From positions 1 to 64,000 of the IMG/VR virus record IMGVR_UViG_3300037400_002787: 64,000 nt of DNA. One strand, written 5' to 3'. Both the position numbers and the translations under genes were made by a program. A model generated the notes under the pieces. It made no database searches. It was not told the origin of the DNA and was given only the letters and a program-made list of their open reading frames with translations. Source of the DNA: a virus (lineage: Duplodnaviria; Heunggongvirae; Uroviricota; Caudoviricetes). Below, one piece after another: positions 121-49,600 of this stretch (position 1 is its first letter; each line of letters opens with the position of its first letter).

Positions 121-150
121 TTTACATCTGACCGCAATTTATGATATAAT
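121..150 (+). promoter_or_regulatory. sigma70-type phage promoter (TTTACA-N17-TGATATAAT)
   Basis: TTTACAtctgacc at 121, extended -10 TGATATAAT at 142-150. Member of a 12-copy conserved promoter family in this window. Confidence 0.7.
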
Positions 151-497: not shown

Positions 498-676
498 CCG
501 ATTCCACATCACAATTCTTAACTCTGAGCCCAACAACAAGCACATCGGATTCTGAAGATAAGTCACTCTATGCTCTGGCGGAAGCGAAACTCCGTGAAAA
601 AGTGCAGAATGGTGATCTTGAAGCCATTGCATTGGTACTAAAATTGCAACCAAATAAGTTAGAGGTAACTTGCTAA
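494..676 (+). CDS. hypothetical small protein
   Basis: ATGA overlap with the upstream stop. 60 aa, in operon context. Confidence 0.4.
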   Translation: MTDSTSQFLTLSPTTSTSDSEDKSLYALAEAKLREKVQNGDLEAIALVLKLQPNKLEVTC

Positions 677-696
677 GAAAATAAGGAGAAAAAACA

Positions 697-1926
697 ATGG
701 CACGGAAACTAGCAAGTGTAGTAGAGATTAGCGAAATACTCCCCATAGAGGGAGCGGACAAACTTGAACTTGCCAAGATGAAGGGCAAGGGATGGCAGGT
801 TGTTGTTCAGAAGGGGGAGTTTAATATTGGAGATTTAGCCGTATATGCGGAGATAGATAGTTTTCTCCCGTCTGATGATGACCGCTATGCATTTCTCCGC
901 GAGAGGTGTCTTCGTCGTTTCGTCTCCAAGTCTGGCAATGTCCTCCGTGAGGGCATCAAGATCAAGACCATCAAGTTGCGGGGGCAGATTTCGCAGGGGC
1001 TGCTGATGCCACTCGCCAAGTTCCCGGAGATAACATCGCGCATAATAGAAGGGAAATTCCTAACCTGCACAAAAGATGAATGGCAGAATGAGTTGGACAA
1101 AATCTGTGCGGAAAGCAACGAGCCGTTAGATGTTGTGCCATATGCAAAAGAAGACTACATAGTAGAACTCATCGGTGCGGATGTCACGAAACTCCTCAAG
1201 GTCGAACACTACGACGAGGTGAAGGAGCAGTTGCAGCCAGCGATGGGGAATCCCATCTGTGCTGATGCCCTTGGCAAGTTTCCTTCCGACTATATACCCA
1301 AGACTGACGAAGAGAGAATCCAGAACCTCGGGGACTGGTTCGAGAAGATGAAGGGGAGGGTATGGCAGGTGTCCTGCAAGCATGACGGCACTTCCTGCAC
1401 GATTGCATACTCGAAGATGATTGACGAGGGTAATCCCGAAATAGTGTGCTCTCGCAATCTTAGGCTAAAGCCCGAATCGGCGGATGGCAAGATTCCAGTA
1501 TACTGGCAGATGGCAAAGCAGTACGACATGCTCAATAAACTCAAGGGGCTTTCCGAGAGTATGGGAATAGAGTATGCTGTGCAGGGCGAGATAGTCGGAC
1601 CCGGCATCAACAAATGCAGAAATAAGGAGCAGACATACAAGTTCCTTGTGTTCCGAATCTACGACATCACAAACCAGAAGTTGGTGAATCCTACGGATAC
1701 TGTGCAGATGTGCAAGTCACTTGGTCTTGAGCATGTCCAGATTGTGAAGGACAACTTTGCTTTCTTCGACGAAATCAAGACGATGGACGAGGCATTGAAG
1801 TTCGCTGAGGGCAAGACCGCCGAGGGCAATGAGAGAGAGGGAGTAGTTTTGAAGACGATTGATACGCTTCCGTATGCAAGTTTCAAGATTGTAAGCAACA
1901 AGTACCTGATGAAGCAGGAGGACTGA
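697..1926 (+). CDS. ATP-dependent RNA ligase-like nucleotidyltransferase with N-terminal tRNA-binding (Trbp111/CsaA-like) OB domain
   Basis: N-terminus VVEISEILPIEGADKLELAKMKGKGWQVVVQKGEFNIGDLAVYAEIDSFLP matches the tRNA-binding OB-fold pattern. KxDG adenylation motif CKHDGTSCTIAY follows. SD aaggagaaaaaacaATG. Confidence 0.5.
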   Translation: MARKLASVVEISEILPIEGADKLELAKMKGKGWQVVVQKGEFNIGDLAVYAEIDSFLPSDDDRYAFLRERCLRRFVSKSGNVLREGIKIKTIKLRGQISQGLLMPLAKFPEITSRIIEGKFLTCTKDEWQNELDKICAESNEPLDVVPYAKEDYIVELIGADVTKLLKVEHYDEVKEQLQPAMGNPICADALGKFPSDYIPKTDEERIQNLGDWFEKMKGRVWQVSCKHDGTSCTIAYSKMIDEGNPEIVCSRNLRLKPESADGKIPVYWQMAKQYDMLNKLKGLSESMGIEYAVQGEIVGPGINKCRNKEQTYKFLVFRIYDITNQKLVNPTDTVQMCKSLGLEHVQIVKDNFAFFDEIKTMDEALKFAEGKTAEGNEREGVVLKTIDTLPYASFKIVSNKYLMKQED

Positions 1927-1928
1927 CC

Positions 1929-2225
1929 GTGGGGCAAATGGATTTTGGAGACGCGCTTCGCTGCCTGAAGAAGGGGCTAAAGGTTTGTCGTCAAGGGTGG
2001 CATCATGGGGACAAGTTCCTCTGGCTCAAGCCAGCGGCTACAATCAAAGCCGAGTGGTGCAAGGACGAGAAATTACGGTCCATAGCGGAAGCGAACGGAG
2101 GCGAGATAGATGGTAGACCAGTAATCTGCCTCTACCTGACCATGGATGGTCGTCCGACGATTCTCACAGGGTGGAATCCTCTACCCTGTGATATTCTTGC
2201 AGAGGACTGGATGGTTGTAGACTGA
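1929..2225 (+). CDS. DUF2829-family protein (Tad2-like, candidate anti-Thoeris/anti-signalling sponge)
   Basis: 98 aa. Has FGDALRCLKKGLKVCRQGW and a C-terminal DILAEDWMVVD, as remembered for the DUF2829 profile. Paralog of 3070-3381. Confidence 0.5.
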   Translation: MGQMDFGDALRCLKKGLKVCRQGWHHGDKFLWLKPAATIKAEWCKDEKLRSIAEANGGEIDGRPVICLYLTMDGRPTILTGWNPLPCDILAEDWMVVD

Positions 2226-2278
2226 TTTAGCCGCGACGGGTTTCAATGCCGTTGGGCGAGAACAAAAAAAGGAAAACT

Positions 2279-3052
2279 ATGAAAAGCAAAAAAACAAGCA
2301 ATGGACACCTCCTTCTCACGGAGAAGCAGACGGAGAAACTGGGAAAGATTCTGGCAAAGGCTCTTTCCAAATACGGCCTACGCCAGAAGGACTTTAAGAC
2401 CTTCGATGTCAAGCGGGGGATAGAGATTCTAGAAGAAATCGCCCGAATGCGCAAGGAACTCGAGTCCAAGCATAAAGCAGTTGCTCAGAAGTGCCGCAAG
2501 GACTTCGAGTATTGGAAGAAGTGGCATCTCAATCATGCGAAGAAGGGCAAGAAGGCATTGGGGGAGATGCTCAAGATTCTCTCCAAGTTCGACTCGTATC
2601 AGGTTCAGGGCTTGTGTGATTTCGTTAAGTCTCTCCGTCCCCGCGTGGACTACGGACATCTCTACAAAAGGATGAAAGCCGAGGGCAATGCGTCCTGGGG
2701 AAGCCCGAGCTACATCGTCACCAACGTCCTCAACGGCACAAAGCAGGAACTCGTCTCGAAAAATTCAAAGGCATACAAGGTGATGTCTGCGGCCGTCAAC
2801 AATGCGAAGAAGGCGGTTGCCGACCAAAAACCCGGCAACAGGCTTCTTGGACTGGACGGTGTGGTGAGCGTCAAGGATGGAGACCACTATATCGCATTTG
2901 TCACAGGGGGCAACAATGGTTGCAGCGATTGGGCTACATACTTCAAGAGTCTCATAACCATTGTGAACTCCGTGAAGAAGGGTTGGCTCATCGAAATTGA
3001 AAACGACTGTTGCGACGATGTACACTATGCCTTGATTGGGTTTCGGATTTAA
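2279..3052 (+). CDS. hypothetical protein, basic N-terminus (alternative start 2246)
   Basis: Long ORF between the two DUF2829 paralogs. SD aaaggaaaactATG at 2279. Confidence 0.5.
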   Translation: MKSKKTSNGHLLLTEKQTEKLGKILAKALSKYGLRQKDFKTFDVKRGIEILEEIARMRKELESKHKAVAQKCRKDFEYWKKWHLNHAKKGKKALGEMLKILSKFDSYQVQGLCDFVKSLRPRVDYGHLYKRMKAEGNASWGSPSYIVTNVLNGTKQELVSKNSKAYKVMSAAVNNAKKAVADQKPGNRLLGLDGVVSVKDGDHYIAFVTGGNNGCSDWATYFKSLITIVNSVKKGWLIEIENDCCDDVHYALIGFRI

Positions 3053-3069
3053 TAACAAAGGAGAAAATT

Positions 3070-3381
3070 ATGTTTGGTGATAAAGAAAAAGACTTCTCGG
3101 AAGCACTTAGGCTTCTTAAGGATGGCAAGCGGATTTACCGCAAGGGTTGGAATGGAAACCAGATTTCCTTCGACCCTGCAATGTACATATGGCTAGACAA
3201 GGGCTACACCCTAAAGCGAGGGGATGTAAATACCGAAAATATGGTCAAGGCATTAGGGCGCAACAATCAGATTGAAGTTAGGGCCGCCATTGTGATGAGG
3301 ACTGCAGACGGGAAACTAATTTTGAGCTGGCACCCGACAGCGGATGATGTCCTTGCCAACGACTGGATGGTTGTAGACTAA
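3070..3381 (+). CDS. DUF2829-family protein (Tad2-like), second paralog
   Basis: MFGDKEKDFSEALRLLKDGKRIYRKGWNG ... DVLANDWMVVD. Same N- and C-terminal signature as 1929-2225. SD aaaggagaaaattATG. Confidence 0.5.
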   Translation: MFGDKEKDFSEALRLLKDGKRIYRKGWNGNQISFDPAMYIWLDKGYTLKRGDVNTENMVKALGRNNQIEVRAAIVMRTADGKLILSWHPTADDVLANDWMVVD

Positions 3382-3419
3382 TTTGGTAAAACCAAAAACA
3401 AAACAAAAGGAAAAAAACA

Positions 3420-5030
3420 ATGCACACACTAATGCTCGCCGCAGCAGAAGCGGCATCTAACGGAACGGGATTCACCATTGTGGGTCTTGTTGCTCTCGGA
3501 GTGGCCACTTTGGCCGTAATTGCAGTATTCGCACTTGGATACTGTAAGGCTCCGCCGGACAAGGCATACATCATATCCGGCCTTCGCAAGAGGATTCTTA
3601 TTGGAAAGGCGGGATTCCGCATTCCGTTCTTCGAGCGGCTCGATATTGTCACCCTCGAACTCATTCAGGTTGATGTCAAGACCAAGCAGAAGGTTCCGAA
3701 CAAGGATTTCATTAACGTTAATGTTGATGCGGTCGTAAACATTAAGGTTAGCCGCGAGGAAAGCATGCTCAATCTGGCTGCCATGAACTTCCTCAATGCA
3801 TCGCCCGAATACATTAGCGAAAATGCCAAGGAAGTTCTCGAGGGCAACATGCGCGAGATTGTCGGGGAAATGACCACAAAGGAAATGGTGTTGAACCGGC
3901 AGCAGTTTGCAGAGGCCGTCAAGAAAAATGCGGCCCCCGACTTGGAGAGGATGGGTCTTGAGATTGTATCGTTCAATGTGCAGAACTTCACAGACGACGA
4001 CCATGCAATCGAGAACCTCGGTATCGACAACATCGCCACAATCAGCAAGGATGCGGCCATCGCCCGCGCAAATGCAGAGGCTCAGGTTGAAAAGGCAAGG
4101 GCCAATGCCGCAAAGGAAGCCAATGATGCAAAGGTTGCCGCCGAAACGGAGATTGCTATCCGCAACAACGAACTTGAAATCAAGAAGGCAGACCTGAAGA
4201 AGCAGGCCGACATTCAGATTGCGATTGCTGAAGCAGCAAAGGGTATTCAGGCAGAAGAGCAGAGGAAGATACTTGAAGCAACCTCTGGCGATGCAAGCAT
4301 TATATCGTTGGAGAAGCAGACAGAACTCTCGCAGAGGGAAGTGGCAATCACAGAGAAGAAGCTCGATGCGGAAATTCGCAAGAGGGCGGAAGCGGAGAAA
4401 TTCGCTGCACAGCAGGAAGCGGATGCTAAGCTCTATACTACACAGAAGCAGGCCGAGGCGGAACTTGCAGAGCGAACCCGCAAGGCGGAAGCAACACAGG
4501 TGGAAGCGGAGCGCGAGGCGGATGCTACCAAGGCGGCGGCGGATGCGGCACTCTTCCAGCAGTCAAAGGAGGCGGAAGCCAAGCAGATAGCCGCAGAGAG
4601 GGAGGCTGCTGCAATCAAGGCAATTGCCGATGCCGAGAAGGTGAAGGGTGAGAATGAGGCATTCGTCATCAAAGCCAAGGGCGATGCAGAAGCCGATGCG
4701 ATAAAAGCAAAGGCCCTTGCGGAGGCAGAAGGTCTTGAGAAGAAAGCGGATGCAATGGCGAAGTACGGCGAGGCGGCAAAGATGGACCTCCAGTTGCAGG
4801 TCGCAAAGGAGTTCGTGAAGGTGCTGCCGGCAATCGCAACGGGTGTTGCTTCGGCCTACACTAAGGTAGGCAACATCACGATGTATGGCGACCAGAGCGG
4901 AAAGATTGCATCTGGAGTCATAGACCATACAACACAATTGTTCGACGGTCTCTCAAAGTCTCTTGGATTCGATGTGAAGTCCGCAATCGGCGGAGCCTTG
5001 GCAACAAAGTTGCTTGGCGACAACAAGTAA
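3420..5030 (+). CDS. flotillin-like SPFH/band-7 domain membrane protein
   Basis: N-terminal TM helix, then an SPFH domain (RIPFFERLDIVTLELIQVDVKTKQ...). A long Ala/Glu-rich coiled-coil follows (EA-repeat flotillin region), then a C-terminal conserved tail. Confidence 0.7.
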   Translation: MHTLMLAAAEAASNGTGFTIVGLVALGVATLAVIAVFALGYCKAPPDKAYIISGLRKRILIGKAGFRIPFFERLDIVTLELIQVDVKTKQKVPNKDFINVNVDAVVNIKVSREESMLNLAAMNFLNASPEYISENAKEVLEGNMREIVGEMTTKEMVLNRQQFAEAVKKNAAPDLERMGLEIVSFNVQNFTDDDHAIENLGIDNIATISKDAAIARANAEAQVEKARANAAKEANDAKVAAETEIAIRNNELEIKKADLKKQADIQIAIAEAAKGIQAEEQRKILEATSGDASIISLEKQTELSQREVAITEKKLDAEIRKRAEAEKFAAQQEADAKLYTTQKQAEAELAERTRKAEATQVEAEREADATKAAADAALFQQSKEAEAKQIAAEREAAAIKAIADAEKVKGENEAFVIKAKGDAEADAIKAKALAEAEGLEKKADAMAKYGEAAKMDLQLQVAKEFVKVLPAIATGVASAYTKVGNITMYGDQSGKIASGVIDHTTQLFDGLSKSLGFDVKSAIGGALATKLLGDNK

Positions 5031-5042
5031 TATACCCCCGCA

Positions 5043-5090
5043 CCCTCTCTCTCGTCCAGAGTTGGCGAGGGAGAGGGGCATTTAATTTCT
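5043..5090 (+). terminator. rho-independent terminator
   Basis: Inverted repeat ccctctctctcg...cgagggagaggg, followed by a T-rich tract. Confidence 0.5.
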
Positions 5091-5100
5091 ACCCGAACAA

Positions 5101-5703
5101 ATGGCAACCATACCGGCATCGTTCTTTCAAACCGCCCATGTTCCCACGTACTGCGATTTTGCAAAGAAGGGAACGGTTGTAATATTCGACACGGAGACAA
5201 CGGGTTTCCACGATTCTGATGAGGTAGTGCAATTGGCGGTTGTTGCTGTGAAGGACGGGGAAGAGAAATTCGCTAAAGCCGTATATCTAAAGAATAGGAA
5301 TCCAATAGACGGCACGGAAGCACAGCAGGTCAATGGCATTACGGATGCGATTCTTGCAGAGAAGGGTCTGGAGCCGACTGTGGTATTAAACGATTTCCTC
5401 GCTCTCCTCAAATCAACAATAGAGGAAGAGGGTAGGGTTCTTCTAGTGGCGCATAATCTGGCTTTCGATTGGCGGATGTTGGCGAATATGCTAGAAAGAT
5501 ATGGATGCCAGAACATTCCAACGGGCGTTGTGCCTTGCTGCACTTTGGAATTCGTGAAGTCACTCTGCCTGCCAAAGACCATTCTACCGAGAAACAAACT
5601 TAGCACCTGCATAGAGGTCTTCGGACTTTCCGCACGAAATTCGCATGATGCTCTAGACGATGCAAGGGCTTGTCTTGAACTTTTTAGATTTCTAACCGCC
5701 TAA
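5101..5703 (+). CDS. DEDDh 3'-5' exonuclease (DnaQ/epsilon-like)
   Basis: Exo I VIFDTETTG, Exo II HNLAFDWRML, Exo III HDALDDARACLEL. Confidence 0.75.
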   Translation: MATIPASFFQTAHVPTYCDFAKKGTVVIFDTETTGFHDSDEVVQLAVVAVKDGEEKFAKAVYLKNRNPIDGTEAQQVNGITDAILAEKGLEPTVVLNDFLALLKSTIEEEGRVLLVAHNLAFDWRMLANMLERYGCQNIPTGVVPCCTLEFVKSLCLPKTILPRNKLSTCIEVFGLSARNSHDALDDARACLELFRFLTA

Positions 5704-5708
5704 CCCCC

Positions 5709-5738
5709 TTGCAAACTGACACCCGTTTATGATATAAT
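5709..5738 (+). promoter_or_regulatory. sigma70-type phage promoter
   Basis: ccccTTGCAAactgac, N18, TGATATAAT. Confidence 0.65.
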
Positions 5739-5798
5739 ATATTCGTCAAAAGGAGAATATCAAAGACAAAGACAACAATCCAAGAAAGAGAAGTACTT

Positions 5799-5987
5799 AT
5801 GACGAGGAATAAGATATTTTCGACAATAGCTCAGGTGTTGCTAATAGTTGTGGGGATGGTTCCAATCGCTCTATGTTTCGGTTTCCTAGCGGAAGACCCG
5901 CAGAGGTATGTGCACAACCTTTTTGTAGTTGGAATCTACGGACTTCTCTTCGGTCTTGTATCTCTTGTATTGTCCTTGGTGGATTAA
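5799..5987 (+). CDS. small membrane protein (2 TM)
   Basis: Hydrophobic 62-aa ORF downstream of the promoter. Confidence 0.45.
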   Translation: MTRNKIFSTIAQVLLIVVGMVPIALCFGFLAEDPQRYVHNLFVVGIYGLLFGLVSLVLSLVD

Positions 5988-6002
5988 AAGGTGAGCGGTA
6001 CA

Positions 6003-6527
6003 ATGGCAGACGATATGGACATAGAACTTCCTCTTGTAAAGGTAAGCAAAGAGGATGTGTATGGCGCATTGTTTGTCCATACGAACAATATGGGAGAACT
6101 ATACCACGATTCCCTAATGAAGCTCCAGACATGGATAATGACCTATGCAGAGGATGTGGTAAAGCCACTTAGGGAATCCGGTAAATTCACTGACGAATAC
6201 ATAGATTCCCTAAAGAGGAAGACTTGTGTAATATCTCCTTTGACACTTACGCTCTATCTGCACTGGCTACAGATGGAGCAGTTCTCCAAGATGCCCGACT
6301 CGCAGAAGGAGAAGATTCTGCTGGAGAAGTTGCCGGATAGGTTTAGGGCAAGATACAAAGGAAATGCAGCCTGTAGAAATGCAAGAGAGGTTTCGCCGGA
6401 CGAAGAGACAATTGGAGAAGATGGGCAGAGTGAAACGGAGGTTGTAGCCCACAAGAGGCGGATGACGTTTGTGGAGTTTCTAAAAGAGTTTGGCGAGGAA
6501 GTAAAACAAAACAAAACAAGAGGATAG
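6003..6527 (+). CDS. hypothetical protein
   Basis: ATG 6003 in-frame within ORF 5991-6527. Acidic protein. Confidence 0.5.
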   Translation: MADDMDIELPLVKVSKEDVYGALFVHTNNMGELYHDSLMKLQTWIMTYAEDVVKPLRESGKFTDEYIDSLKRKTCVISPLTLTLYLHWLQMEQFSKMPDSQKEKILLEKLPDRFRARYKGNAACRNAREVSPDEETIGEDGQSETEVVAHKRRMTFVEFLKEFGEEVKQNKTRG

Positions 6528-6533
6528 GTGAGT

Positions 6534-6839
6534 ATGGGCGAGAACGACAATGTAAATAGAAAGTTCCTTCTCAAAAACGGACGGCAGACCATCGACTACA
6601 TCGACGATGCCGGCCTACTACTTGGATTCTGCATTGGAAGGGCGGTCCAATGTCGGTACAAGGCGGGAGTTGAGTCTGACAGAACCAAGCAGGAGAAGTT
6701 GATGAAAGACTGCAACTGGTACATCGACTGCCTTGCGCGAAGGAAGAATATGGTACGGGAGGAAATCGTTGCCATAGTCAAGTCCATAGTGGGCAAGATG
6801 GAGAAGGATAGGATAGTCACGGAGGTGGCGAATGGGTAA
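6534..6839 (+). CDS. DUF3310-like phage protein
   Basis: AVQCRYKAGVESDRTKQEKLMKDCNWYIDCL resembles the A.KY..R.G.......dL.KA.WY motif of the DUF3310 phage family. Confidence 0.4.
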   Translation: MGENDNVNRKFLLKNGRQTIDYIDDAGLLLGFCIGRAVQCRYKAGVESDRTKQEKLMKDCNWYIDCLARRKNMVREEIVAIVKSIVGKMEKDRIVTEVANG

Positions 6840-12362: not shown

Positions 12363-13151
12363 ATGAAAAAGTTTGTAGTGTACATGTCGGTTCTGGTTGC
12401 AATGTCATTCATTATGTCTGGATGCAAACATATAGACGGCGAAGGAACTCCAACGGCGAAGACCACAAACACCTATGTTGTAGTTGTTGGTATGGAGAAC
12501 TCTCGGTTTGCAGGAGAGTGTCCAGGGGCGGGATATGATGCGGATAGGATGTACAAACTCCTATCGCAGTACACACCAAATGCCGTTCTTTTGAGAGATA
12601 GCAATGCTACAAAGGCTAATGTTGTAAATGCCCTTCGCAATGCAATCTCTAAGGCGGGGGACGGTCTGGTGATATTCAGTTATTCGGGACATGGAGGAAG
12701 CGAACCTTTCCCGGATACCGGCATTGAAGAGACGGATGGTCATGATGAGTTTCTCTGCCTATGGGACACCTATATGAGAGATAATGAAATATGGAATATC
12801 ATCAACAAGAGTAGCGGACGCATCTTTCTGCTGTTTGACTGTTGCCATTCGGAGACGATGATGAGAAATCCTATGTTCAAGATTGTCCCGCCTCTGTCAT
12901 TCGACCATACAATAACTGAAAATTGCAAGTTCTCTATGCTGTGCTGGTCTGGCTGTCCTGACAACACCTATTCTTATGGGGCTTCTAATGGCGGACAGTT
13001 TACGAATGCTCTTCTAAGGCATTTCAATGCGAGCAAGACCTATGAGTATCTCTGGAATGAAATCAAGAACGACAAAACCCTCCGTGCTTACGAGAATCCA
13101 CAAAGTACGGTCTTGGGAAATGGATTTGCCGCAAAGCCGATATTTAGATGA
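12363..13151 (+). CDS. caspase-like (peptidase C14/CHAT-like) lipoprotein
   Basis: Lipobox ...FIMSGC. Catalytic His in YSGHGG and Cys in LLFDCCHSE (caspase HC dyad arrangement). Confidence 0.55.
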   Translation: MKKFVVYMSVLVAMSFIMSGCKHIDGEGTPTAKTTNTYVVVVGMENSRFAGECPGAGYDADRMYKLLSQYTPNAVLLRDSNATKANVVNALRNAISKAGDGLVIFSYSGHGGSEPFPDTGIEETDGHDEFLCLWDTYMRDNEIWNIINKSSGRIFLLFDCCHSETMMRNPMFKIVPPLSFDHTITENCKFSMLCWSGCPDNTYSYGASNGGQFTNALLRHFNASKTYEYLWNEIKNDKTLRAYENPQSTVLGNGFAAKPIFR

Positions 13152-28057: not shown

Positions 28058-28720
28058 ATGAGCGAAGACAATAAAGAATACTGGAAGCCGTCAGTGACGG
28101 CAGACGTCGTGGTTGTAGACATTCACCAGGCGAAGTTCCGCAAAGACGGGGCATACATCAACATACTCCTCATCAAGAGGTCTGACAGGAGCGATGCATT
28201 CCCGAACTGCTGGGCTCTCCCCGGAGGATTCCTCGACAAGGGCGAATCCATAGATCAGTGTGCCGCAAGGGAACTCAAAGAGGAAACCGGCCTTGAAGCC
28301 GAGAACCTTATGCCTGTCGGCGTCTATTCCAATCCTAGCCGAGACCCAAGGGGGCAGGTAATTTCCCATGCTTTCATGTCGGTTTTCCCCTCTACCGACG
28401 AGAACCCCCTTCCCGTCAAGGCGGGAGACGATGCCAAGGATTTCGGGCTATTCAATCTAAAGGGTAAGTTCTCCCGTGAAGATGGAACCCTCAATGTTCG
28501 GCTTCGCTGTCCCGAGAACAATAAAGTCATTGAGTTCAAGGCAACCTTCTCACAGGGAGCCCTTGGCCTCCTACAGACTAAGATAGAATACAAGAGCGAC
28601 GACAAGTTGGCATTCGACCATGCGGAAATCATCGCAAGGGCGATTCTTCGGACACCTGACCTGGTAATGCCGACCTCAACAAAGCCGATGCAATCTGAAG
28701 AGAAGTCTAAAGAGAAATAA
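28058..28720 (+). CDS. NUDIX hydrolase
   Basis: Nudix box GGFLDKGESIDQCAARELKEETGL (Gx5Ex7REUxEExGU). Confidence 0.8.
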   Translation: MSEDNKEYWKPSVTADVVVVDIHQAKFRKDGAYINILLIKRSDRSDAFPNCWALPGGFLDKGESIDQCAARELKEETGLEAENLMPVGVYSNPSRDPRGQVISHAFMSVFPSTDENPLPVKAGDDAKDFGLFNLKGKFSREDGTLNVRLRCPENNKVIEFKATFSQGALGLLQTKIEYKSDDKLAFDHAEIIARAILRTPDLVMPTSTKPMQSEEKSKEK

Positions 28721-31799: not shown

Positions 31800-33280
31800 G
31801 CAATAAGTAGATGAAGTCAGACGAGACCAGGAAGTGCGGATGTTCCGCAGAGAGGCGGCAGAAGGTAAAGGAAAGCCGCAAAGCCACCGCCATCAGGAGG
31901 CGGGGGCAGATGGGTTTCGTCTACGAGTGCAAGATAGTGGAGAGTCGGCTCAACAAGAGGCAGATGGAGGAACTTGAGCGGCTTTTCGTGGAGGGGAAGT
32001 GGTTCTACAACCATGTCTTGTCGCTCCATAGGGAAGGTGTGGGGTTGGGGGAGATTAATGCCACTGCCGTCAAGGAGGTGGGAAGGTTTGACAGGAACCA
32101 CGAGAAGAAGACAGAAAAACTTCAAGTGCTGACCGCTCAGGAGCGGCAGGGGATAATCGCCAGAATGGCCGCCAACGAGAAGACGATATCTGCCCTGGCG
32201 AAGAAGGGGTTGCAGGGAGGCGGGGAGTTGCATTTCCTGTCGGAGATGACGTGCATACCGCTGAAGCAGTACGGTGTGACATACAAGTTCAAGACGCCGA
32301 ACAAGGTGCGGATAGGGGGAATTAGCGGGAGTGTGCTGGTGCGGACTGGCGGACAGTTGGAAGGGGTGGACGAACTGGCGAATGCCAACCTCGTGCATAG
32401 GGCGGACGGCTACTTCCTCAAGGTCACGGGCTTCACAAACATAGAGAATCTAAAACAAACGGAAACGAACGGAAAGGAGATAGGGCTTGATTTTGGAATC
32501 AAGACCAGTGTGACGACATCGGAAGGCGAGAAGATTGACGTGCTAGTTGGAGAAAGCGAACGGCTCAAGCGGCTGCAGAAGGAACTATTCCGCAGGGCAA
32601 AGGGTTCGAACAACAGGTACAGGACAATCAAGAGGATTCGCCGCGAATACCAGAGACTGACGAACAGAAAAACCGACATGGCCAACAAAATTGTCTCGAA
32701 ACTGAAGAAATACAACACGATAGTGATGCAGGACGAGATGATTGTCGGGTGGCACAGGGGACTCTTCGGGAAGCAAGTCCAGCACAGTTGTCTAGGAATC
32801 CTGAAAGAAAAACTCATAAGGCTTCCGCAGACGATAGTGCTCGCCCGTGGAATCCCCACGACCAAGATGTGCCCCGTGTGCAAGACCGTGAACAGGTACG
32901 TCACCCTTGCGGACAGGACGTACAGGTGCGGTTGCGGCTACACCCAAGACCGCGACCTCCATGCCGCAAGGAACATGCTCGTCGTCAAGAATATGGTCTT
33001 TGGAAACAATTTGGAAAAACTACCGCTGGGACGGCGGAAAGTCACGCTCACAGAGTTCCGCACCTCTATCGGAGATGTAACAGTCTCCGACAAGCCGGAA
33101 CGCAGAAGTGGGAAGATGCCATGTCTTTAGCATGGCATAGAGTTCACAGCGGATTCTTCTAGAGAAGCAACTTATTGCAATGGATAAATATGCAACTATT
33201 CTTTTCGCTCGCATAAACCTTGCGGTTGGCGAATATTCTAAAAATAGAGACAAGAATCCATTAATGAGGAGTTCACTATG
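31800..33280 (+). mobile_element. IS200/605-family TnpB-only element 1 (boundaries approximate)
   Basis: Contains the tnpB gene. The 3' flank 33131-33277 is non-coding and would carry the omega/reRNA and RE. Confidence 0.5.
31910..33130 (+). CDS. tnpB: TnpB (OMEGA RNA-guided RuvC-like nuclease)
   Basis: RuvC-I IGLDFGIKT, RuvC-II region VMQDEMIV. C-terminal Zn finger plus RuvC-III CPVCKTVNRY...CGCGYTQDRDLHAARNM. Confidence 0.8.
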   Translation: MGFVYECKIVESRLNKRQMEELERLFVEGKWFYNHVLSLHREGVGLGEINATAVKEVGRFDRNHEKKTEKLQVLTAQERQGIIARMAANEKTISALAKKGLQGGGELHFLSEMTCIPLKQYGVTYKFKTPNKVRIGGISGSVLVRTGGQLEGVDELANANLVHRADGYFLKVTGFTNIENLKQTETNGKEIGLDFGIKTSVTTSEGEKIDVLVGESERLKRLQKELFRRAKGSNNRYRTIKRIRREYQRLTNRKTDMANKIVSKLKKYNTIVMQDEMIVGWHRGLFGKQVQHSCLGILKEKLIRLPQTIVLARGIPTTKMCPVCKTVNRYVTLADRTYRCGCGYTQDRDLHAARNMLVVKNMVFGNNLEKLPLGRRKVTLTEFRTSIGDVTVSDKPERRSGKMPCL

Positions 33281-34535: not shown

Positions 34536-35771
34536 ATGAAACTCAATCCGATAATCAATAGCCTACTTGAAACCGACCAGTACAAGTTTTCGATGGGGCA
34601 GACTATCTACCACCAGTTCAACAAGGATGTGACTACCTGGGCTTTCAAGTGTCGTAACAAGAATGTTGTATTCACACCCGAGATGGTGCAGGAGATTCGG
34701 GAGCAGATTGCTCATTTCTGCACCCTTAGGTTCAAGGAGGAAGAACTGGAATGGATGAAGAATACAATTCCTTGGCTTAGCGGTGACTACATTTCGCATC
34801 TCCGTAGGTGGTATCCTAGGCGGGAGCAGATTTTTGTAGACGATGGAGAGATTACACGGAATTGTGAGCCGTGCGGTATGAGAATTACCGCTACAGGAGA
34901 ATGGCTCGACACTTCCATGTACGAGATACCTATTCTCGCTATTGTAAATGAGGTGTATTTCGCTTTCAAGTATGGTGCAGGAGCCCTAAATCGTGCTGCA
35001 CAGGATAGGTTTGAGAAGAAACTGTCCATGATGAAGAATGGATACTATGCCATTGGATGCTTCTCGGAGTTTGGTATGAGGAGAAGGTATTCCGCCCAGA
35101 TGCAGGATTGGATTGTGGGTAGCCTAGCACACTTCGGTACATCTTTCAACACCTTTGTCGGTACTTCCAATGTCTACCTTGCGAAAAAGCACGGAGTCAA
35201 GCCTGTGGGGACGATGGCACATGAGTTTATCCAAGTTGTGGGACAGGCTCACCACGAGCACAATCCCGCCTACTCCAATCACTATATGATGAAGGCTTGG
35301 GTCAAGGAATACGAGACTGATAATGGCATTGCACTCACGGACACCATTACGACAGACTGCTTCCTTCGGGACTTCAACAAGACCTATGCCACACTTTTTA
35401 GCGGTGTGAGGCACGATTCCAACGACCCGTTTGTGTGGGGCGAGAAAATGATTGCTCACTACAAGAAACTTGGCATCGACCCAATGACCAAGACACTCTT
35501 GTTCTCGGATAGCCTTGACTTTAACAAGGCAACACAGATTCGTAATTATTTTAGCGGCAAGGCAAGAGTTGCATTCGGCATCGGGACATACATTGCGAAC
35601 GACACAGGCAAGGAGCCGCTTAATATAGTGATGAAGGTGATAGAAGCGAATGGCTCACCGGTTGCAAAACTTTCCGATATTGATGGCAAGGGTATGTGCC
35701 GTGATATTGCTTATGTAGACTACCTCCGCCGCACAATCGACTGGCGTCTCGCACACGAGAAGGAGGTGTAA
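34536..35771 (+). CDS. pncB: nicotinate phosphoribosyltransferase
   Basis: LLETDQYKFSMGQ (LLDTDAYKLHMQQ), VGTMAHEFIQ, GIALTDTITTDCFLRDF, GVRHDSNDPFVWGEKMIAHYKKLGIDP, NIVMKVIEANGSPVAKLSD. Near colinear with E. coli PncB. Confidence 0.9.
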   Translation: MKLNPIINSLLETDQYKFSMGQTIYHQFNKDVTTWAFKCRNKNVVFTPEMVQEIREQIAHFCTLRFKEEELEWMKNTIPWLSGDYISHLRRWYPRREQIFVDDGEITRNCEPCGMRITATGEWLDTSMYEIPILAIVNEVYFAFKYGAGALNRAAQDRFEKKLSMMKNGYYAIGCFSEFGMRRRYSAQMQDWIVGSLAHFGTSFNTFVGTSNVYLAKKHGVKPVGTMAHEFIQVVGQAHHEHNPAYSNHYMMKAWVKEYETDNGIALTDTITTDCFLRDFNKTYATLFSGVRHDSNDPFVWGEKMIAHYKKLGIDPMTKTLLFSDSLDFNKATQIRNYFSGKARVAFGIGTYIANDTGKEPLNIVMKVIEANGSPVAKLSDIDGKGMCRDIAYVDYLRRTIDWRLAHEKEV

Positions 35772-35825: not shown

Positions 35826-35853
35826 TTGCATCTTCCACAAAGATATGATACAA
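35826..35853 (+). promoter_or_regulatory. possible promoter for tnpB-2
   Basis: TTGCAT, N16, TGATACAAT. ATG 8 nt downstream. Confidence 0.35.
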
Positions 35854-35861
35854 TACAACCA

Positions 35862-37115
35862 ATGTTGAGAGGAATCCCGATACGTGTGTACCCGAACGAT
35901 GAGCAGAGAGCCTACATAAGTAGGCTCTTGGGCTGTTGTCGTTATGTGTACAACCATCTGCTTGCATTCCAGGAGAAGTTGTTCCTTGAAGAGAAGAGGG
36001 GTGCGAAGCAGTCGGAGATTACAGAATTCTACAATGAAGAGAAAACTCAGAACCAGTTTCTTCGCGAAGTCCACAGCAAAGTGCTTCAACAGTCCCGAAT
36101 AGACTTGCAGACGGCATGGGGAAACTACTTCAAGAGCCTAAAGAAGTCTAGCGGCAAGAAAGCGAACAAACCGATCTACCATAAGAAGGGCATCAAGGAA
36201 TCTTGTAGATTTCCCGTAGATGCTTTCATCGGCATCAGGGGCAACCGAATATCCATCATCAAGCCGTTGCGGGACATGCATTTCAAGTGCAGCAGACGGG
36301 ACGAGCGGTACTTGAACAAACACCAAGACGAAGTGAAGAGCATAACCCTGCGGAAGACGGGCGGTGGTAGGTATTACTGCTCCGTGCTAATAGATGACCG
36401 CCGCATACGGCCGTTGCCAAAGGAAGAGAAAGATGTAGGCATAGACCTAGGTGTGAAGGATTCTGCAATAACATCAGATGGGGACAAGTTCGAGAATCCC
36501 AAGGCATTGGCAAAGGTGGAGAAGCAGATAAAGAGGTGGGAGAGAATCAAGTCCCGTCGAGAGAGGGGAAGCAATAGGCGGAGAATGGCGGTAGCGAGAG
36601 TGTCCCGTCTGCACGAAAGGGCTTCCAACATACGAAAGGATTTCCAGCACAAGGCGACGACCCGAATAGTCCGCGAAAACCAAGCGGTCTATGTCGAAGA
36701 CCTCAATGTGGCTGGTATGATGAAGAACCACAAACTGGCAAAGGCGGTGGCAGATTCCTCTATGAGTGGATTAGTCCGAATGCTGGAGTACAAGTGCAAG
36801 TGGTACGGACGGGAACTGGTGAAGGTTGACAGATGGTATGCCAGCAGCCAGACCTGTTCGTGCTGCGGGTACAAGAACTCCGAGGTGAAGAACCTCAAAG
36901 TCAGGGAGTGGGTATGTCCCAAGTGCGGTAAGCATCACGACCGCGATGTGAATGCGGCTGTGAATGTGCTACATGAGGGGCGGAGAATCAGAGAGAATAA
37001 GGTAGGGCTGAGTTCGCCCGAACCTAACGCTCGTGGACAGGGCAACGGGGGAGTTTCCATGCCGCAAGGTGCGGAGACAGCCGTTCTGGACGAAGCGAGA
37101 AAGGAATGTGCCTAA
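35862..37115 (+). CDS. tnpB: TnpB (OMEGA RNA-guided RuvC-like nuclease)
   Basis: N-terminus [15 protein letters not shown], Ruv[12 protein letters not shown], Ruv[17 protein letters not shown]. Zn finger CSCCGY...CPKCG, Ruv[15 protein letters not shown]. Confidence 0.85.
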
Positions 37116-38034: not shown

Positions 38035-38571
38035 ATGTTTGTTGGGGGAATTACCAGAGAGTCTCTTGCAAAAGAGGCAAGACGGAAAAAAATGCTAGAG
38101 GAAATAGCACCGGCAAAAGACACACGCCCTTCTTGGAATACCTATTTTCTAAAGCTCGCAAAGGATGTCTCCGAGCGTAGCAACTGCTGCCGCCGCAAGG
38201 TTGGAGCGGTTATCGTCAAGGACAACCACATCATTGCTACGGGTTACAATGGTACACCCGCAGGAACCACCAACTGTTTCGACGGCGGCTGTCCTAGGTG
38301 CAACCACACCCACACAACAGGAGAGAAACTTGATGAGTGTCTTTGTGTTCATGCCGAGCAGAATGCGATATGCCAGGCGGCAAAGCACGGCAATGCCGTT
38401 GACGGAGGGCATATCTACATAACCTGCTCTCCTTGTCTTACCTGCTTGAAGTTGATAATCAATGCTGGCATCAAGAGAGTTGTTTTCAGCGAGTGGTACA
38501 AGCCTTTTAATGAGCAGGAACTAAACCTCATACAAGAAGCGAAACTTGAATATATGGAGTGCGTGAGATGA
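38035..38571 (+). CDS. dCMP deaminase (CDA-fold zinc deaminase)
   Basis: CVHAEQNAI (HAE) and PCLTCLKLIINAGIKRV (PCxxC) zinc-binding motifs. Confidence 0.8.
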   Translation: MFVGGITRESLAKEARRKKMLEEIAPAKDTRPSWNTYFLKLAKDVSERSNCCRRKVGAVIVKDNHIIATGYNGTPAGTTNCFDGGCPRCNHTHTTGEKLDECLCVHAEQNAICQAAKHGNAVDGGHIYITCSPCLTCLKLIINAGIKRVVFSEWYKPFNEQELNLIQEAKLEYMECVR

Positions 38572-39263
38572 CCAATAGACCTGGAATTATGGGGAGTATA
38601 ACTCCCCGCATGGGGATATTCGGAGGAACTTTTTCTCCTTTCACTGTTGCCCATAGAGCGATTGTCAAAGCATTTATAGGCACCTATCGTCTGGATGAAC
38701 TATATATAATTCCTACAATTGTTAATTATCATCGTGAGGGAAAAAACGACTTGCTTCTAGAAACGGACAAGGTGGAAATCATAGAGAGGATGTTAGACAC
38801 ACTCTCGCCGTTCTATCAGAGACGCATTTTTATAGACAAGAGCGAGTTTGCCTATAGAGACCTGTGCCTTGGTATGTCAGACGAGGCTTGGACCACACTT
38901 GTGGACGGACGAAGGTTTATTCATACTCTTCTAGACTTCAATGTGAGACATGGGATAGATAAAGATGTTTCCCGTCCTTATGTCTGTATTGGGACGGACT
39001 CCTTTGAGCATCTTGACCAATGGTATATGAACACGGAGATTGTGAAAATATGCAATCTTGTTGTTGTTCAGGGAAGGAACGATGTGTTTGTTTCCAGACC
39101 CAAAATCCCGCATACCGAATTTAGAATAGCCTATGACTACGAGAAGGTGTCGGCAAGCAAGATACGGGATAAGATGCGATGCCGCAACTGGAGTCACTAC
39201 ATAGCGGATGTCAAGAGACTAGACGAGGGGAAGACAACCCTTGCGGAATTAGGATGGATTTAA
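38568..39263 (+). CDS. nadD: nicotinate/nicotinamide mononucleotide adenylyltransferase (NadD/NMNAT family)
   Basis: GIFGGTFSPFTVAH (FGGTFDPVHYGH), CIGTDSFEHLDQW (IIGqDSL..F..W), VSASKIRDKM (ISAT.IRe.l). ATGA overlap with the upstream gene. Confidence 0.7.
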   Translation: MTNRPGIMGSITPRMGIFGGTFSPFTVAHRAIVKAFIGTYRLDELYIIPTIVNYHREGKNDLLLETDKVEIIERMLDTLSPFYQRRIFIDKSEFAYRDLCLGMSDEAWTTLVDGRRFIHTLLDFNVRHGIDKDVSRPYVCIGTDSFEHLDQWYMNTEIVKICNLVVVQGRNDVFVSRPKIPHTEFRIAYDYEKVSASKIRDKMRCRNWSHYIADVKRLDEGKTTLAELGWI

Positions 39264-39283: not shown

Positions 39284-39751
39284 ATGAAATACATAAACCT
39301 CCGAATCAGCCCCAACAACAATAATGTTGAAGTTACCCGCGCCTGTTCGCACGGCGACTGCGACCAGATATTGAAGGGCGACGAGAACTACTGCCCGAAG
39401 TGCGGAAGCCCGTTGAAGAAACTCCCAGACCATCTCGACAAGGAGGCGATTATCGCCCTCGTCAACGAGAACATCGACAAACTGCCGAAGCCGCCAACGG
39501 CGGAATCTAAGGCAAACCTCGACGACCATTGTTCAACCACGGGCGGTATAGACGGACACGATGGGTGGACTGTGACCAACAAAGGAAAAGAGACTACGGA
39601 ATGTCCCTACGGCAAGGGTACTCCCGAAATATGCGGGTTCTGCACAAGCAAAGGCGCTTGCACCATAGGGGTTCTAACCTCGATGCCCCCGCAGTACGAT
39701 ATGTGTCCGTTTCGCGGGTCGGGATTCATTCGCTGCTCGGAAGCCGATTGA
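39284..39751 (+). CDS. Cys-rich zinc-ribbon protein
   Basis: Multiple CxxC pairs (CPKCG, CGFC). Confidence 0.45.
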   Translation: MKYINLRISPNNNNVEVTRACSHGDCDQILKGDENYCPKCGSPLKKLPDHLDKEAIIALVNENIDKLPKPPTAESKANLDDHCSTTGGIDGHDGWTVTNKGKETTECPYGKGTPEICGFCTSKGACTIGVLTSMPPQYDMCPFRGSGFIRCSEAD

Positions 39752-39777
39752 CAAAAACTCCAAAAAGGAACTTAGAA

Positions 39778-41016
39778 ATGGAATCCTACAAATTTAACCC
39801 TGAGCAAGCATTCAACACAATCTCCGACCACTGGAAGAAGTGGGCTACGGCACACGGCATGGAGCAGTGGGTGGTCGGCATCTCCGGCGGAGTTGACAGT
39901 TCCGTGACGGCAGCTCTCGCCGCCAAGATATTTGGCTACGACAATGTACTCGGAGTCCTTATGCCGAATGGAGAGCAGAAAGACATTGAGGACGCCAAGG
40001 ACATTTGCCGACACCTCAAAATAGAGTGGTGTACCGTCAACATCGGGAGGACTTATGAGGAACTTCTTGATGAGGTTGTGTTTGGTGCATTGAGGGCATA
40101 TGGCATCGAGAGGGCTTCTACCGACACCATCACGAATATGCCGGCGAGGTTGAGGATGACTGCCCTGTATGCTATCGCACAATCCACTGCCAGGATGGTT
40201 CTCAACACCTGCAACCTATCTGAGTCCACGGTGGGCTACGATACGCTTTGGGGCGACGATGCCGGTTCCTATGCCCCTATTCAGGGTCTTACAAAGACCG
40301 AGGTGATTGCCCTCGGCGACTGGCTCGGTCTCCCGCACAACTTCACCCACAAGACTCCGATAGATGGCTTGCAGCCCAAGACAGATGAGGAGAAACTCGG
40401 CTTCACCTATGCCGACCTCGACCGCTATATCCGAGAGGACATCGGCACTCCAGAACTCAAGGCGAAGGTCGATGACCTCTATCGCCGCAACAAGTTCAAG
40501 ACCGATATGATTCATATCGACGGACCGAACTTCTATGCACTCGCCAACTTCGTCCGATACAACAACCTGCCCGATGCAGAGAAAACAGTCAAGCAAGCAT
40601 TTGCGGATAATCTCGACATTGTAAGGCTTGAGCCAGAACCACGATACCCGGAGGATGCATGGATCAACGGGGAGAGAGACGACAACGACAATCCGAAGAT
40701 GCCGTTCATGGTTGCCGATGAAAAGGCACAGAACGGCTGGGTGTGGAAACTAGATGTCAACATCAAGACGGGCGAAGTCATCGGATGGCCGAAGGATGTC
40801 AAGGCAGAGGTTCATTACAAGGTTTGCGACTGCTGCCGCATCAAGTATAATGGAGAAGAATACTACGAATATGTACCCGACTTTCTTGAAATAGATGACG
40901 AGGGATATGGAGACTACATTATACTAACAATTGATGATGGCAAAATAGTCAACTGGAGCGAGTCCGACTGCCGTAAGTTCATCAATGATGTTCTCTTCAA
41001 AGACGAGGGAAAGTAA
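39778..41016 (+). CDS. nadE: NH3-dependent NAD+ synthetase with about 140-aa C-terminal extension
   Basis: PP-loop VVGISGGVDSS. GNxxARLRM-like block (PARLRMTALY), ESTVGYDTLWGDDAGSYAPI ([26 protein letters not shown]). Confidence 0.85.
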   Translation: MESYKFNPEQAFNTISDHWKKWATAHGMEQWVVGISGGVDSSVTAALAAKIFGYDNVLGVLMPNGEQKDIEDAKDICRHLKIEWCTVNIGRTYEELLDEVVFGALRAYGIERASTDTITNMPARLRMTALYAIAQSTARMVLNTCNLSESTVGYDTLWGDDAGSYAPIQGLTKTEVIALGDWLGLPHNFTHKTPIDGLQPKTDEEKLGFTYADLDRYIREDIGTPELKAKVDDLYRRNKFKTDMIHIDGPNFYALANFVRYNNLPDAEKTVKQAFADNLDIVRLEPEPRYPEDAWINGERDDNDNPKMPFMVADEKAQNGWVWKLDVNIKTGEVIGWPKDVKAEVHYKVCDCCRIKYNGEEYYEYVPDFLEIDDEGYGDYIILTIDDGKIVNWSESDCRKFINDVLFKDEGK

Positions 41017-49054: not shown

Positions 49055-49600
49055 ATGAGCAAGAAGGTAATAGTTGTAGTTGATGTACAGAATGATTTTG
49101 TGAAGGGTGGAGTGCTCCCTTACGGCTACCCACAGAAGGATATTGTTGGGGATGTCTGCGATTATGTCCGTAAGGCAAGCTCTGAGGGGCATCGCATTAT
49201 TGCCACACGTGATACTCATCACGACAACTATTTAGAGACATTGGAGGGCAAGAACCTTCCGGTCAAGCACTGCATTCACGATACTCACGGATGGTCACTT
49301 GTTCCCGACCTTAACGAAATGTATGCGGCGGGGAAGTTGACCGTGTTCGATAAGCCAACCTTTGGCACTCCTCTGGTTGGGGAGTATGTCCGTGGCATTA
49401 TAGAGAGTGAGACGATAGATGAGATTGAACTCATTGGATTCGACCTCTCTATCTGTGTGCTTGCAAATGCCGTGCTTCTTCGTTCAAGATTCCCAAATAT
49501 GCCCATCACCGTTCGTATGGACCTCTGTGGAGATGTTGACAAGAAGAGTTTCAAGGCAGCCTGCGAGGTGCTCCATAACCAGCAGATTCGGGTCTGCTAA
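49055..49600 (+). CDS. pncA: nicotinamidase (isochorismatase-family cysteine hydrolase)
   Basis: VVVDVQNDF (VDLQNDF), THHDNY (WHPANH metal site), VKHCIHDTHG (WPDHCVQ), FDK (catalytic Lys), IGFDLSICV (MGLATDYCV, catalytic Cys). Confidence 0.7.
   Translation: MSKKVIVVVDVQNDFVKGGVLPYGYPQKDIVGDVCDYVRKASSEGHRIIATRDTHHDNYLETLEGKNLPVKHCIHDTHGWSLVPDLNEMYAAGKLTVFDKPTFGTPLVGEYVRGIIESETIDEIELIGFDLSICVLANAVLLRSRFPNMPITVRMDLCGDVDKKSFKAACEVLHNQQIRVC

Follow-up and report, generated by a model that had tools for sequence, protein, structure and literature searches.

Two Tad2-family proteins of different subfamilies in a variable islet of a very large phage

Introduction

Why would a phage carry two different Tad2-family proteins almost side by side? 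The question is raised by a 64,000-nucleotide (nt) stretch of DNA, positions 1 to 64,000 of IMG/VR record IMGVR_UViG_3300037400_002787 (Caudoviricetes; hereafter the window), which appears to be part of a very large uncultured phage. Near its start two short genes encoding putative Tad2 (Thoeris anti-defence 2, DUF2829) proteins, Tad2a and Tad2b, flank a third gene, X. Tad2 proteins act as sponges that sequester nucleotide-derived signals of bacterial immunity; sponges are highly specific and act stoichiometrically. They are also among the best tools for discovering such signals, and His-ADPR (ADPR, ADP-ribose) was found through one of them, ModTad2; the targets of a quarter of the tested sponge homologs are yet to be discovered. 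Eighteen diverse Tad2s have been tested; they inhibit type I, II and IV Thoeris, the cyclic oligonucleotide-based antiphage signalling system (CBASS) and the pyrimidine cyclase system for antiphage resistance (Pycsar) in different combinations, using two kinds of pocket, and sequence motifs predict their activity poorly.

We argue, with a probability of roughly 0.7, that the three genes form a small variable counter-defence unit (the islet) made up of two non-redundant Tad2 sponges of different ligand spectra and a further module, X. The Tad2 family is known and its occurrence in a phage is ordinary. What is new here is the presence of two subfamilies side by side, a conserved His/Cys replacement in the pocket of one of them, and a Tad2 fusion that flags an undescribed domain.

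Two Tad2-family proteins from different subfamilies

All three open reading frames (ORFs) lie co-oriented on the + strand where the initial annotation, made from the sequence alone, had placed them (Table 1), with gaps of 53 nt between Tad2a and X and of 17 nt between X and Tad2b. Tad2a opens with a GTG 7 nt past an AGGAGG; the alternative ATG at 1938 is the start called by JGI. Tad2b is preceded by AAGGAG. The DUF2829 motifs that had suggested the family are present in both outer ORFs, with one deviation, R for K at one N-terminal motif position of Tad2b.

In profile searches with hidden Markov models (HMMs), both proteins matched PF11195 well above the cut-off of 25 bits (Tad2a, 62.2 bits, E = 6.7e-17, profile positions 1-73; Tad2b, 70.5 bits, E = 1.7e-19, positions 2-73), and both also match PHROGs 872 and 1048. 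The solved Tad2 structures 8SME, 8V3E, 9EIB, 8KBI and 8WJD were matched by both at E = 2e-10 to 2.5e-7, the best matches of Tad2a lying at about 1e-10 and Tad2b aligning end to end at 2e-9 to 2.5e-7. The AlphaFold2 (AF2) model of Tad2a, a monomer prediction built on an alignment of 33 sequences, has a predicted local distance difference test (pLDDT) score of 92.3 and contains the elements of the Tad2 fold: the N-terminal helix, the antiparallel sheet, the insertion after β2 and the short helix before the last strand. When it was compared with the PDB using Foldseek, the only matches at E < 1e-3 were 24 Tad2 chains (template modelling (TM) scores 0.56-0.84); the next match had E = 0.35. Both proteins are thus confirmed by profile as members of the Tad2 family, and Tad2a by its predicted fold as well. 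A six-frame HMM scan of the 64-kb window found no third Tad2 copy.

The two had been called paralogs. They are homologous (33% identity, E = 3e-16), but they belong to different subfamilies and are not recent duplicates within one genome: they are not each other's closest relatives, Tad2a being 52-60% identical to an outside clade against 33% to Tad2b. In a neighbour-joining tree with the 18 tested proteins, the a- and b-types are sister clades, but only on long branches. A database search with Tad2a returned 290 proteins. About seven clusters at 77-94% identity carry the same peculiarities as Tad2a, and more than 100 relatives at 52-60% identity have the canonical motifs GWNGK and WLASQ[ST]D; several of the latter are named DUF2829 proteins from metagenome-assembled genomes of Bacteroidales or Muribaculum. 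The insertion region FLWLKPA.(T/S)IKAEWCKD...NGGEI is nearly identical in Tad2a and these more distant relatives. The nearest relatives of Tad2a form a large canonical gut-phage clade, its sister group.

The b-type is marked by GWNGN..SF.P..[YF]IWL and was seen solely in the jumbo-phage lineage of the window, in a search limited to word-sharing relatives. Orthologs of Tad2b occur in related loci L002, L004, L005, L015, L016 and L017; the version in the window has only two close database relatives, both of which keep WHPTADD. Both types are under purifying selection. The ratio of non-synonymous to synonymous substitution rates (dN/dS) is 0.04-0.16 for unsaturated a-type pairs and 0.07-0.21 for b-type orthologs among one another; pairs that include Tad2b of the window are synonymously saturated (0.09-0.12 or not calculable).

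Of 50,697 deposited phage records, 127 match Tad2a in tblastn, each in one place and all at below 36% identity, and none holds two copies at the tblastn sensitivity used. The literature searched contained no report of phages with two Tad2 genes, and the strings GWHHG, PLPCD and GWNGNIVSF have zero occurrences in Tables S1/S2 of Hadary et al. The nearest experimentally tested relatives of either protein are only about 36% identical, so that no ligand can be assigned by similarity.

Distinct changes in the pocket loops

According to the structure papers, the loop between β1 and β2 of canonical Tad2s forms a lid over the pocket for cyclic ADP-ribose (cADPR); the loop and helix that precede the last strand line this pocket. 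The contacts they list are W25, N26, I63, T65, D67, H71, W73, S76, T78 and D79 in SPO1 Tad2 and W21, N22, G23, M76, A78, T82, V84, W87, L88, S90, T92 and D93 in HgmTad2. Transfer of pocket positions through HMMER alignments points to W24, H25, H26, W82, N83, L85, C87 and D88 in Tad2a and to W27, N28, G29, W87, H88, T90, D92 and D93 in Tad2b. At the six canonical pocket residues (SPO1 W25, N26, W73, S76, T78 and D79), Tad2a therefore retains three (W24, W82 and D88) and has H25, L85 and C87 at the others; Tad2b retains four (W27, N28, W87 and D93) and has T90 and D92 at the remaining two.

To place the Tad2a changes in context, the a-type clade was compared with its canonical sister clade at the 55 positions with a conservation of 90% or more in the sister. 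Fourteen are replaced and fixed in the a-types. The replacements take up nine of the 11 such positions in loops 24-29 and 83-89, against five of 44 elsewhere (Fisher p = 1.4e-5, with the segments picked post hoc); the p value is 0.023 when the broader structural elements that the literature names are used. The nine replacements fall at positions 25, 26 and 29 of the lid loop and at 83-87 and 89 of the lining loop. The resulting His...P.PCD signature is retained in the a-type protein of L002 despite an overall identity of only 55%, which speaks for an altered but maintained site and against decay.

Tad2b differs in another way. Its lid loop holds a six-residue insertion that occurs in all b-type orthologs and in none of the 18 tested or five solved Tad2s, and the position matching the adenine-contacting Thr is variable among b-types (S, T, A or Y, with D in the window). 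The insertion between β2 and β5 measures about 30 amino acids (aa) in Tad2a and about 28 aa in Tad2b, against 24 aa in SPO1 Tad2 and 35-41 aa in the dinucleotide-binding class; neither window protein has the features of that long-insertion subclass (HgmTad2/SptTad2/SaTad2). The HgmTad2 dinucleotide contacts R31, F70 and N85 correspond to K34, I66 and T80 in Tad2a; the equivalent of S47 has no reliable placement within the gapped insertion of the window Tad2s.

At the level of DNA, an inverted repeat of 12 pairs (TCACAGGGTGGA-ATCC-TCTACCCTGTGA, 2164-2191) lies inside the Tad2a gene exactly on the LTGWNPLPCD codons. It is retained in the closest orthologs (L009 and L021), weaker in L017 and missing from L002 and L019, and it may represent an RNA structure or simply follow from the mutual complementarity of Thr-Gly and Pro-Cys codons. 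An origin of the new pocket loop by template switching at this repeat was considered and rejected, since P.PCD is also present in L002 and L019, which do not have the repeat.

A variable islet between fixed anchors

Related loci were fetched through the X and Tad2 proteins and then scanned with HMMs. The RNA ligase gene to the left of the islet keeps its position in every related locus that reaches upstream of the islet, and the SPFH gene takes the right-anchor position in L001-L005 and L017; the two genes flank the islet in nearly all relatives. In the window, a DEDDh exonuclease gene comes next on the right. The exact Tad2a, X and Tad2b proteins were found on a 96.6-kb JGI contig, and relatives on contigs of 100-292 kb.

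The content of the interval changes from locus to locus. The order a-type, X, b-type is that of the window and of L002/L003, and in L017/L018 a 155-aa a-type with an N-terminal extension is followed directly by the b-type. X precedes a b-type in L004, L005/6/10/14, L015 and L016, and it precedes an a-type that sits in the downstream slot in L009/12/13. An a-type followed by a 191-aa X variant, with neither b-type nor SPFH gene, was seen on 24 contigs (L021). X stands alone in L011, and also in L007/L008, where it is interrupted by a stop codon. X adjoins a Tad2 gene in five islet architectures. The pair of a- and b-types occurs in the window, L002 and L017, three lineages that are otherwise 50-60% diverged.

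Sequence identities show that exchange of the a-type gene, both between phages and between the two slots of the islet, does not depend on the genes next to it. Between the window and L021, the a-types are 97% identical although the X genes are quite different; between the window and L009, they are 87% identical and X only 50%. A related form (GWNHKD...WSPIPCD) lies beside the terminase gene of an unrelated 120-kb phage (L019).

Several a-types are longer, at 153-155 aa (L017 5001-5468, P0039, P0042 and P0043), owing to an N-terminal extension of some 55 residues that resembles the long AcrIIA7/HgmTad2 forms and has no Pfam match. In L005, a TnpB gene is inserted directly after the SPFH gene of the islet.

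Gene X and its C-terminal domain

X had been described as basic and without a recognisable domain. Both parts of that description hold: its isoelectric point (pI) is 9.7, and it belongs to no family in Pfam, PHROG, PADLOC or NCBIfam. A PADLOC scan returned nothing relevant, and tblastn against the 50,697 deposited phage records gave zero matches. All 37 full-length homologs are about 250 aa long and have no Pfam match; they lie on contigs of up to 285 kb. Helical and basic (pI about 10), the N-terminal half varies; in the C-terminal half conservation is high, with the stretches WGSPSYIV.NVLNGTKQELVS, GVVSV.DGDHYIAF..GGNNG and NDCCDDVHYALIGF. Fold searches yielded generic α/β matches only, none of them informative, and X showed no sequence or fold match to Tad1, Tad2, Acb2, Acb4, Sequestin, Lockin or enzymes of the Acb1/Apyc1 type.

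The conserved part behaves as a domain of its own, here the X-domain. A profile search of 1.8 billion representatives returned 257 proteins at E < 1e-3, none of which has a Pfam family. Most are stand-alone proteins of 80-140 aa that equal the last 100 or so residues of X; in one case the domain sits after an InPase domain in an 879-aa protein, and one distant stand-alone member (P0176) is on 2-kb contigs only. GG.NG, W..Y and the D...D of the NDC.DD motif are invariant. In IMG/VR the domain occurs at 27 loci; phage contigs of 117-416 kb account for 23 of these, and the other four are on contigs of 21-93 kb. The X-domain is thus widespread in very large phages and absent from Pfam.

Three of the 27 loci have a Tad2 gene within 4 kb. 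Two belong to the lineage of the window, and the third is L025 (IMGVR_UViG_3300028048_000051, a 175.8-kb contig), in which a single 319-aa ORF (3413-4372) fuses a canonical Tad2 domain to an X-domain; an N-terminal extension is followed by Tad2 (PF11195, 76.5 bits) and then by the X-domain (E = 1e-28). Three versions of this protein are on record, P0324 (JGI, Logan and ENA), P0326 (ENA) and P0335 (NCBI), and the fusion is therefore real and not an assembly artefact. In close relatives, the two halves are encoded by separate genes that lie at different loci.

These observations bear on the initial suggestion that X is a co-functioning partner of the Tad2 proteins. Each is found in loci that do not have the other, which shows that X is no obligate partner, but a fusion of its domain with Tad2 exists in another phage; the suggestion is thus only partly borne out. 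We consider that the C-terminal domain of X probably acts in counter-defence, and it may possibly bind a nucleotide: a Gly-rich loop leading into a helix and an acidic hairpin turn would suit such a role.

Weighing the explanations

The reading we prefer takes the interval between the RNA ligase and SPFH genes as a counter-defence islet of variable content in a lineage of phages of 100-290 kb. By homology, each Tad2 would form a homotetramer whose pockets between protomers bind and sequester nucleotide-derived immune signals and so would prevent the host effector from switching on. Tad2a originates in the canonical gut-phage subfamily, its clade having rebuilt the two loops that line the cADPR pocket; it has kept the stacking tryptophans and the aspartate and exchanged N for H, G for H, S for L and S/T for C. 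The Tad2b subfamily has retained GWNG and lengthened the lid loop by six residues, the window version placing an Asp at the adenine-contacting Thr site. The two would then cover different sets of signals, which would be why the phage carries both, and X is an independently shuffled module of the islet. Recurrence of the pair in three lineages, distinct and conserved changes in the pocket loops, and the specificity of sponges make different ligand spectra the best reading, and we regard such a difference as likely. Specialisation for different signals, as the initial annotation had put it, is on this evidence plausible: the pocket loops differ distinctly and both types recur together under purifying selection.

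This reading has three rivals. The two genes might only raise the capacity against one and the same signal (for example 3'cADPR), their differences reflecting neutral drift. In its favour, the two stacking tryptophans and the pocket Asp persist in both proteins, and type I Thoeris is still inhibited by tested homologs whose motifs are unusual. Stoichiometric action would give a second copy a use, and a single copy suffices in many relatives (b-type only in L004 and L005, a-type only in L009 and L021). But the two proteins share only 33% identity and fall into different subfamilies, their changes are concentrated in the pocket loops and kept within each clade under a dN/dS of 0.04-0.2, and the a- and b-types recur as a pair across lineages that have otherwise diverged by 50-60%; we think this account unlikely. 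That Tad2a has instead lost the canonical sponge function, so that only its second pocket works or it has another role such as an AcrIIA7-like anti-CRISPR activity, would surprise us considerably. N26, S76 and T78 (SPO1 numbering) are all replaced in Tad2a, and roughly one in four of the sponge homologs tested was inactive against all seven systems. Yet a-types that share only 55% identity conserve the new residues and are under purifying selection, which speaks for a site that works. As for the other role, AcrIIA7 is a DUF2829 protein with a once-reported anti-CRISPR activity, but Cas9 inhibition by AcrIIA7/HgmTad2 was not reproducible in the hands of Li et al.

A third account treats Tad2a, X and Tad2b as one functional unit, with X as an obligate scaffold, regulator or processing enzyme, or with hetero-oligomers of the two Tad2s. 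The tight co-oriented spacing, a possible shared promoter and terminator, the same a-X-b order in L002 and the natural fusion of Tad2 with an X-domain all fit. The related loci do not, since they show a- and b-types without X, X with either type, an a-type with an X variant, and X alone; most X-domain loci have no Tad2 nearby, and the known Acb4-Tad2 and Sequestin-Tad2 fusions are additive, not interdependent. We judge such a unit very improbable.

Some observations also weigh against the preferred reading of two differently tuned sponges plus a counter-defence module. When the test is restricted to 13 strictly defined contact residues, replacements are not significantly enriched in the Tad2a pocket (p = 0.09), and remodelling in the Tad2a clade extends beyond one site, a second cluster of changes at residues 63-68 lying at the position of the HgmTad2 F70/T71 dinucleotide pocket. 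Tad2_72 and Tad2_79 have no GWNG/SQTD and yet inhibit type I Thoeris, and some canonical-looking homologs inhibit nothing. A stop codon interrupts X in L007, the two Tad2s stand together without it in L017, and 24 of the 27 X-domain loci in IMG/VR have no Tad2 within 4 kb.

Going further, one may speculate that the islet holds two undescribed elements, the His/Cys-pocket Tad2 clade (GWH..D ... P.PCD) being retuned to a signal outside the known Tad2 set and the X-domain (GG.NG ... W..Y ... NDC.DD) being a new family of sponges or signal-inactivating proteins. We hold this joint proposal only tentatively. If the clade were so retuned, Tad2a could serve as bait for a new signal, as ModTad2 did for His-ADPR. 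A lineage that repeatedly keeps two Tad2 types is in any case a natural experiment in sponge specificity; the canonical sister clade and the His/Cys clade make a matched pair for finding what sets ligand choice, and the islet is a lead to new sponge specificities.

Genomic context and NAD-related genes

Nearly all genes of the window are on the + strand, GC content is about 48%, and the gene content comprises replication, nucleotide metabolism and structural genes together with two TnpB genes and one IscB-like gene. A megablast search of positions 600-6600 against the 50,697 deposited phage records gave zero matches. The features discussed are listed in Table 1. The promoter-like and terminator-like sites are consensus matches only, and they could delimit one transcription unit that includes the islet. 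The RNA ligase is of the DRB0094/PHA02142 type and could serve RNA repair against anticodon nucleases.

Table 1 Coordinates of the islet, its flanks and the Sequestin-like and NAD-related genes of the window
Feature	Position	Strand	Evidence and remarks
Promoter-like site, TTTACA-18-TATAAT (11 of 12)	121..150	+	Consensus scan only
RNA ligase (PHA02142 OB domain + RNA_ligase)	697..1926	+	Pfam and PHROG matches, TIGR02306; left islet anchor
Tad2a, putative a-type Tad2-family sponge, 98 aa (95 aa from ATG 1938)	1929..2225	+	PF11195, PDB Tad2 matches, AF2
Tad2a β1-β2 lid loop, codons W24-K29, GWHHGDK vs GWNGKGM	1998..2015	+	Mapped to SPO1 W25/N26, HgmTad2 W21/N22/G23
Tad2a pocket-lining loop/helix start, codons W82-I89, WNPLPCDI vs WLASQ[ST]DM	2172..2195	+	Mapped to SPO1 W73/S76/T78/D79, HgmTad2 W87/L88/S90/T92/D93
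X, 257-aa basic protein; alternative ATG 2246	2279..3052	+	37 full-length homologs; AF2 pLDDT 74; pI 9.7
X-domain, about residues 158-252, helix-strand-strand-helix-strand-strand	2750..3034	+	Motifs HY.A...GGNNG, W..Y, NDCCDDVHY
Tad2b, putative b-type Tad2-family sponge, 103 aa, GWNG kept, WHPTADD	3070..3381	+	PF11195, PDB Tad2 matches
Tad2b lid insertion, codons N30-P36 (NQISFDP) holding six-residue insertion Q31-P36	3157..3177	+	Alignments with tested and solved Tad2s
SPFH/flotillin-like protein, 536 aa	3420..5030	+	PF01145 + PF15975; usual right islet anchor
Terminator-like hairpin, 14 pairs, directly after SPFH gene	5043..5077	+	Consensus scan only
Sequestin-family-like ORF, 103 aa	31488-31799		PF21825 (crAss001_48), 30.6 bits vs cut-off 24.8, profile positions 1-39 of 61
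PncB/NAPRTase	34536-35771		467 bits, cut-off 379
NadD-like adenylyltransferase	38559-39263		Below curated cut-off
NadE	39529-41016		166 bits, cut-off 64
PncA-like isochorismatase	49055-49600		Weaker; below curated cut-off

The NAD-regeneration genes that had been mentioned elsewhere in the window are present: PncB, NadE, a NadD-like and a PncA-like protein. Together they make up a four-step salvage set of the Preiss-Handler type, which differs from NARP1 (Adps and Namat), NARP2 (Nampt and Nmnat) and the recently described NARP3 (PnuC and NadR). The Sequestin-family-like ORF may encode an additional sponge. Hence, the phage appears to counter TIR/NADase immunity both at the level of the signal, with up to three or four putative sponges, and at the level of the metabolite, and the combination of NAD salvage genes, a Sequestin-like ORF and Tad2s speaks of a heavy investment of such phages against this kind of immunity.

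Other genes touch the same subject. A Nudix protein (28058-28720) resembles NadM-Nudix and NtrR ADPR-binding domains, and a 655-aa protein (61542-63509) has an ART-PolyVal ADP-ribosyltransferase domain; the two may take part in the same conflict centred on NAD and ADPR. Two TnpB genes (OrfB_IS605 with Cas12f-like TNB) and one IscB-like gene (RRXRR with HNH) lie at 31811-33130, 35826-37115 and 41957-43222, one TnpB between NAD genes. A caspase-like Peptidase_C14 with a lipoprotein-type signal sequence is encoded at 12363-13151.

Comparison with known sponge systems

A close point of reference is SPO1 Tad2 (gp34.65; 8SME/8SMF/8SMG), the founding anti-Thoeris sponge, which binds 1''-3' glycocyclic ADP-ribose (gcADPR). 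The window proteins share its Pfam family and fold and are likewise encoded by phage accessory genes, with 98 and 103 aa against 89 aa and an identity of only about 31-36%. W25, W73 and D79 of SPO1 Tad2 are kept in both and N26 in Tad2b. Tad2a differs by H for N26, L for S76 and C for T78, and Tad2b by T for S76, D for T78 and a lid loop that is six residues longer; in both, the β2-β5 insertion is longer (about 28-30 aa against 24 aa) and has extra strands.

ModTad2/MoTad2 (9EIB, 8V3E) binds His-ADPR and cyclic UMP (cUMP), and HgmTad2/AcrIIA7 and SptTad2 (8KBI-8KBM, 8WJD) bind gcADPR plus the cyclic dinucleotides cGG/cGAMP in a second pocket. ModTad2, HgmTad2 and SptTad2 are the best structural matches of the Tad2a model (TM 0.69-0.84), which also has their strand-helix-strand insertion of the second pocket. 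They keep GWNGKG and the loop W-x-(P/A)-S-x-(S/T)-D, whereas Tad2a does not, and its insertion, about 30 aa long, falls short of the 35-41 aa of the dinucleotide-binding class. The canonical gut-phage subfamily (for example P0045, P0057 and P0125), the sister group of Tad2a, has GWNGK and WLASQ[ST]D, both of which are replaced in the Tad2a clade.

For X, the relevant precedents are the Acb4-Tad2 and Sequestin(PF21825)-Tad2 fusions described by the Sorek and Kranzusch laboratories, where the Sequestin sponges came to light through their fusion to Tad2 or Acb4 in a screen restricted to Pfam families, and where the fused sponges are additive rather than interdependent (PMC12265669). The same layout is seen in the 319-aa protein of L025, where the partner is the X-domain. 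The X-domain itself differs from the helical Sequestin fold in being mixed α/β and in its absence from Pfam, and X of the window, unlike these fusions, is encoded by its own gene and has a basic helical region of 150 residues in addition. The guilt-by-fusion logic that already gave the Sequestin sponges makes the X-domain a reasonable candidate for a further counter-defence module, and X thereby points to a domain family that is common in very large phages and invisible to Pfam-based fusion screens.

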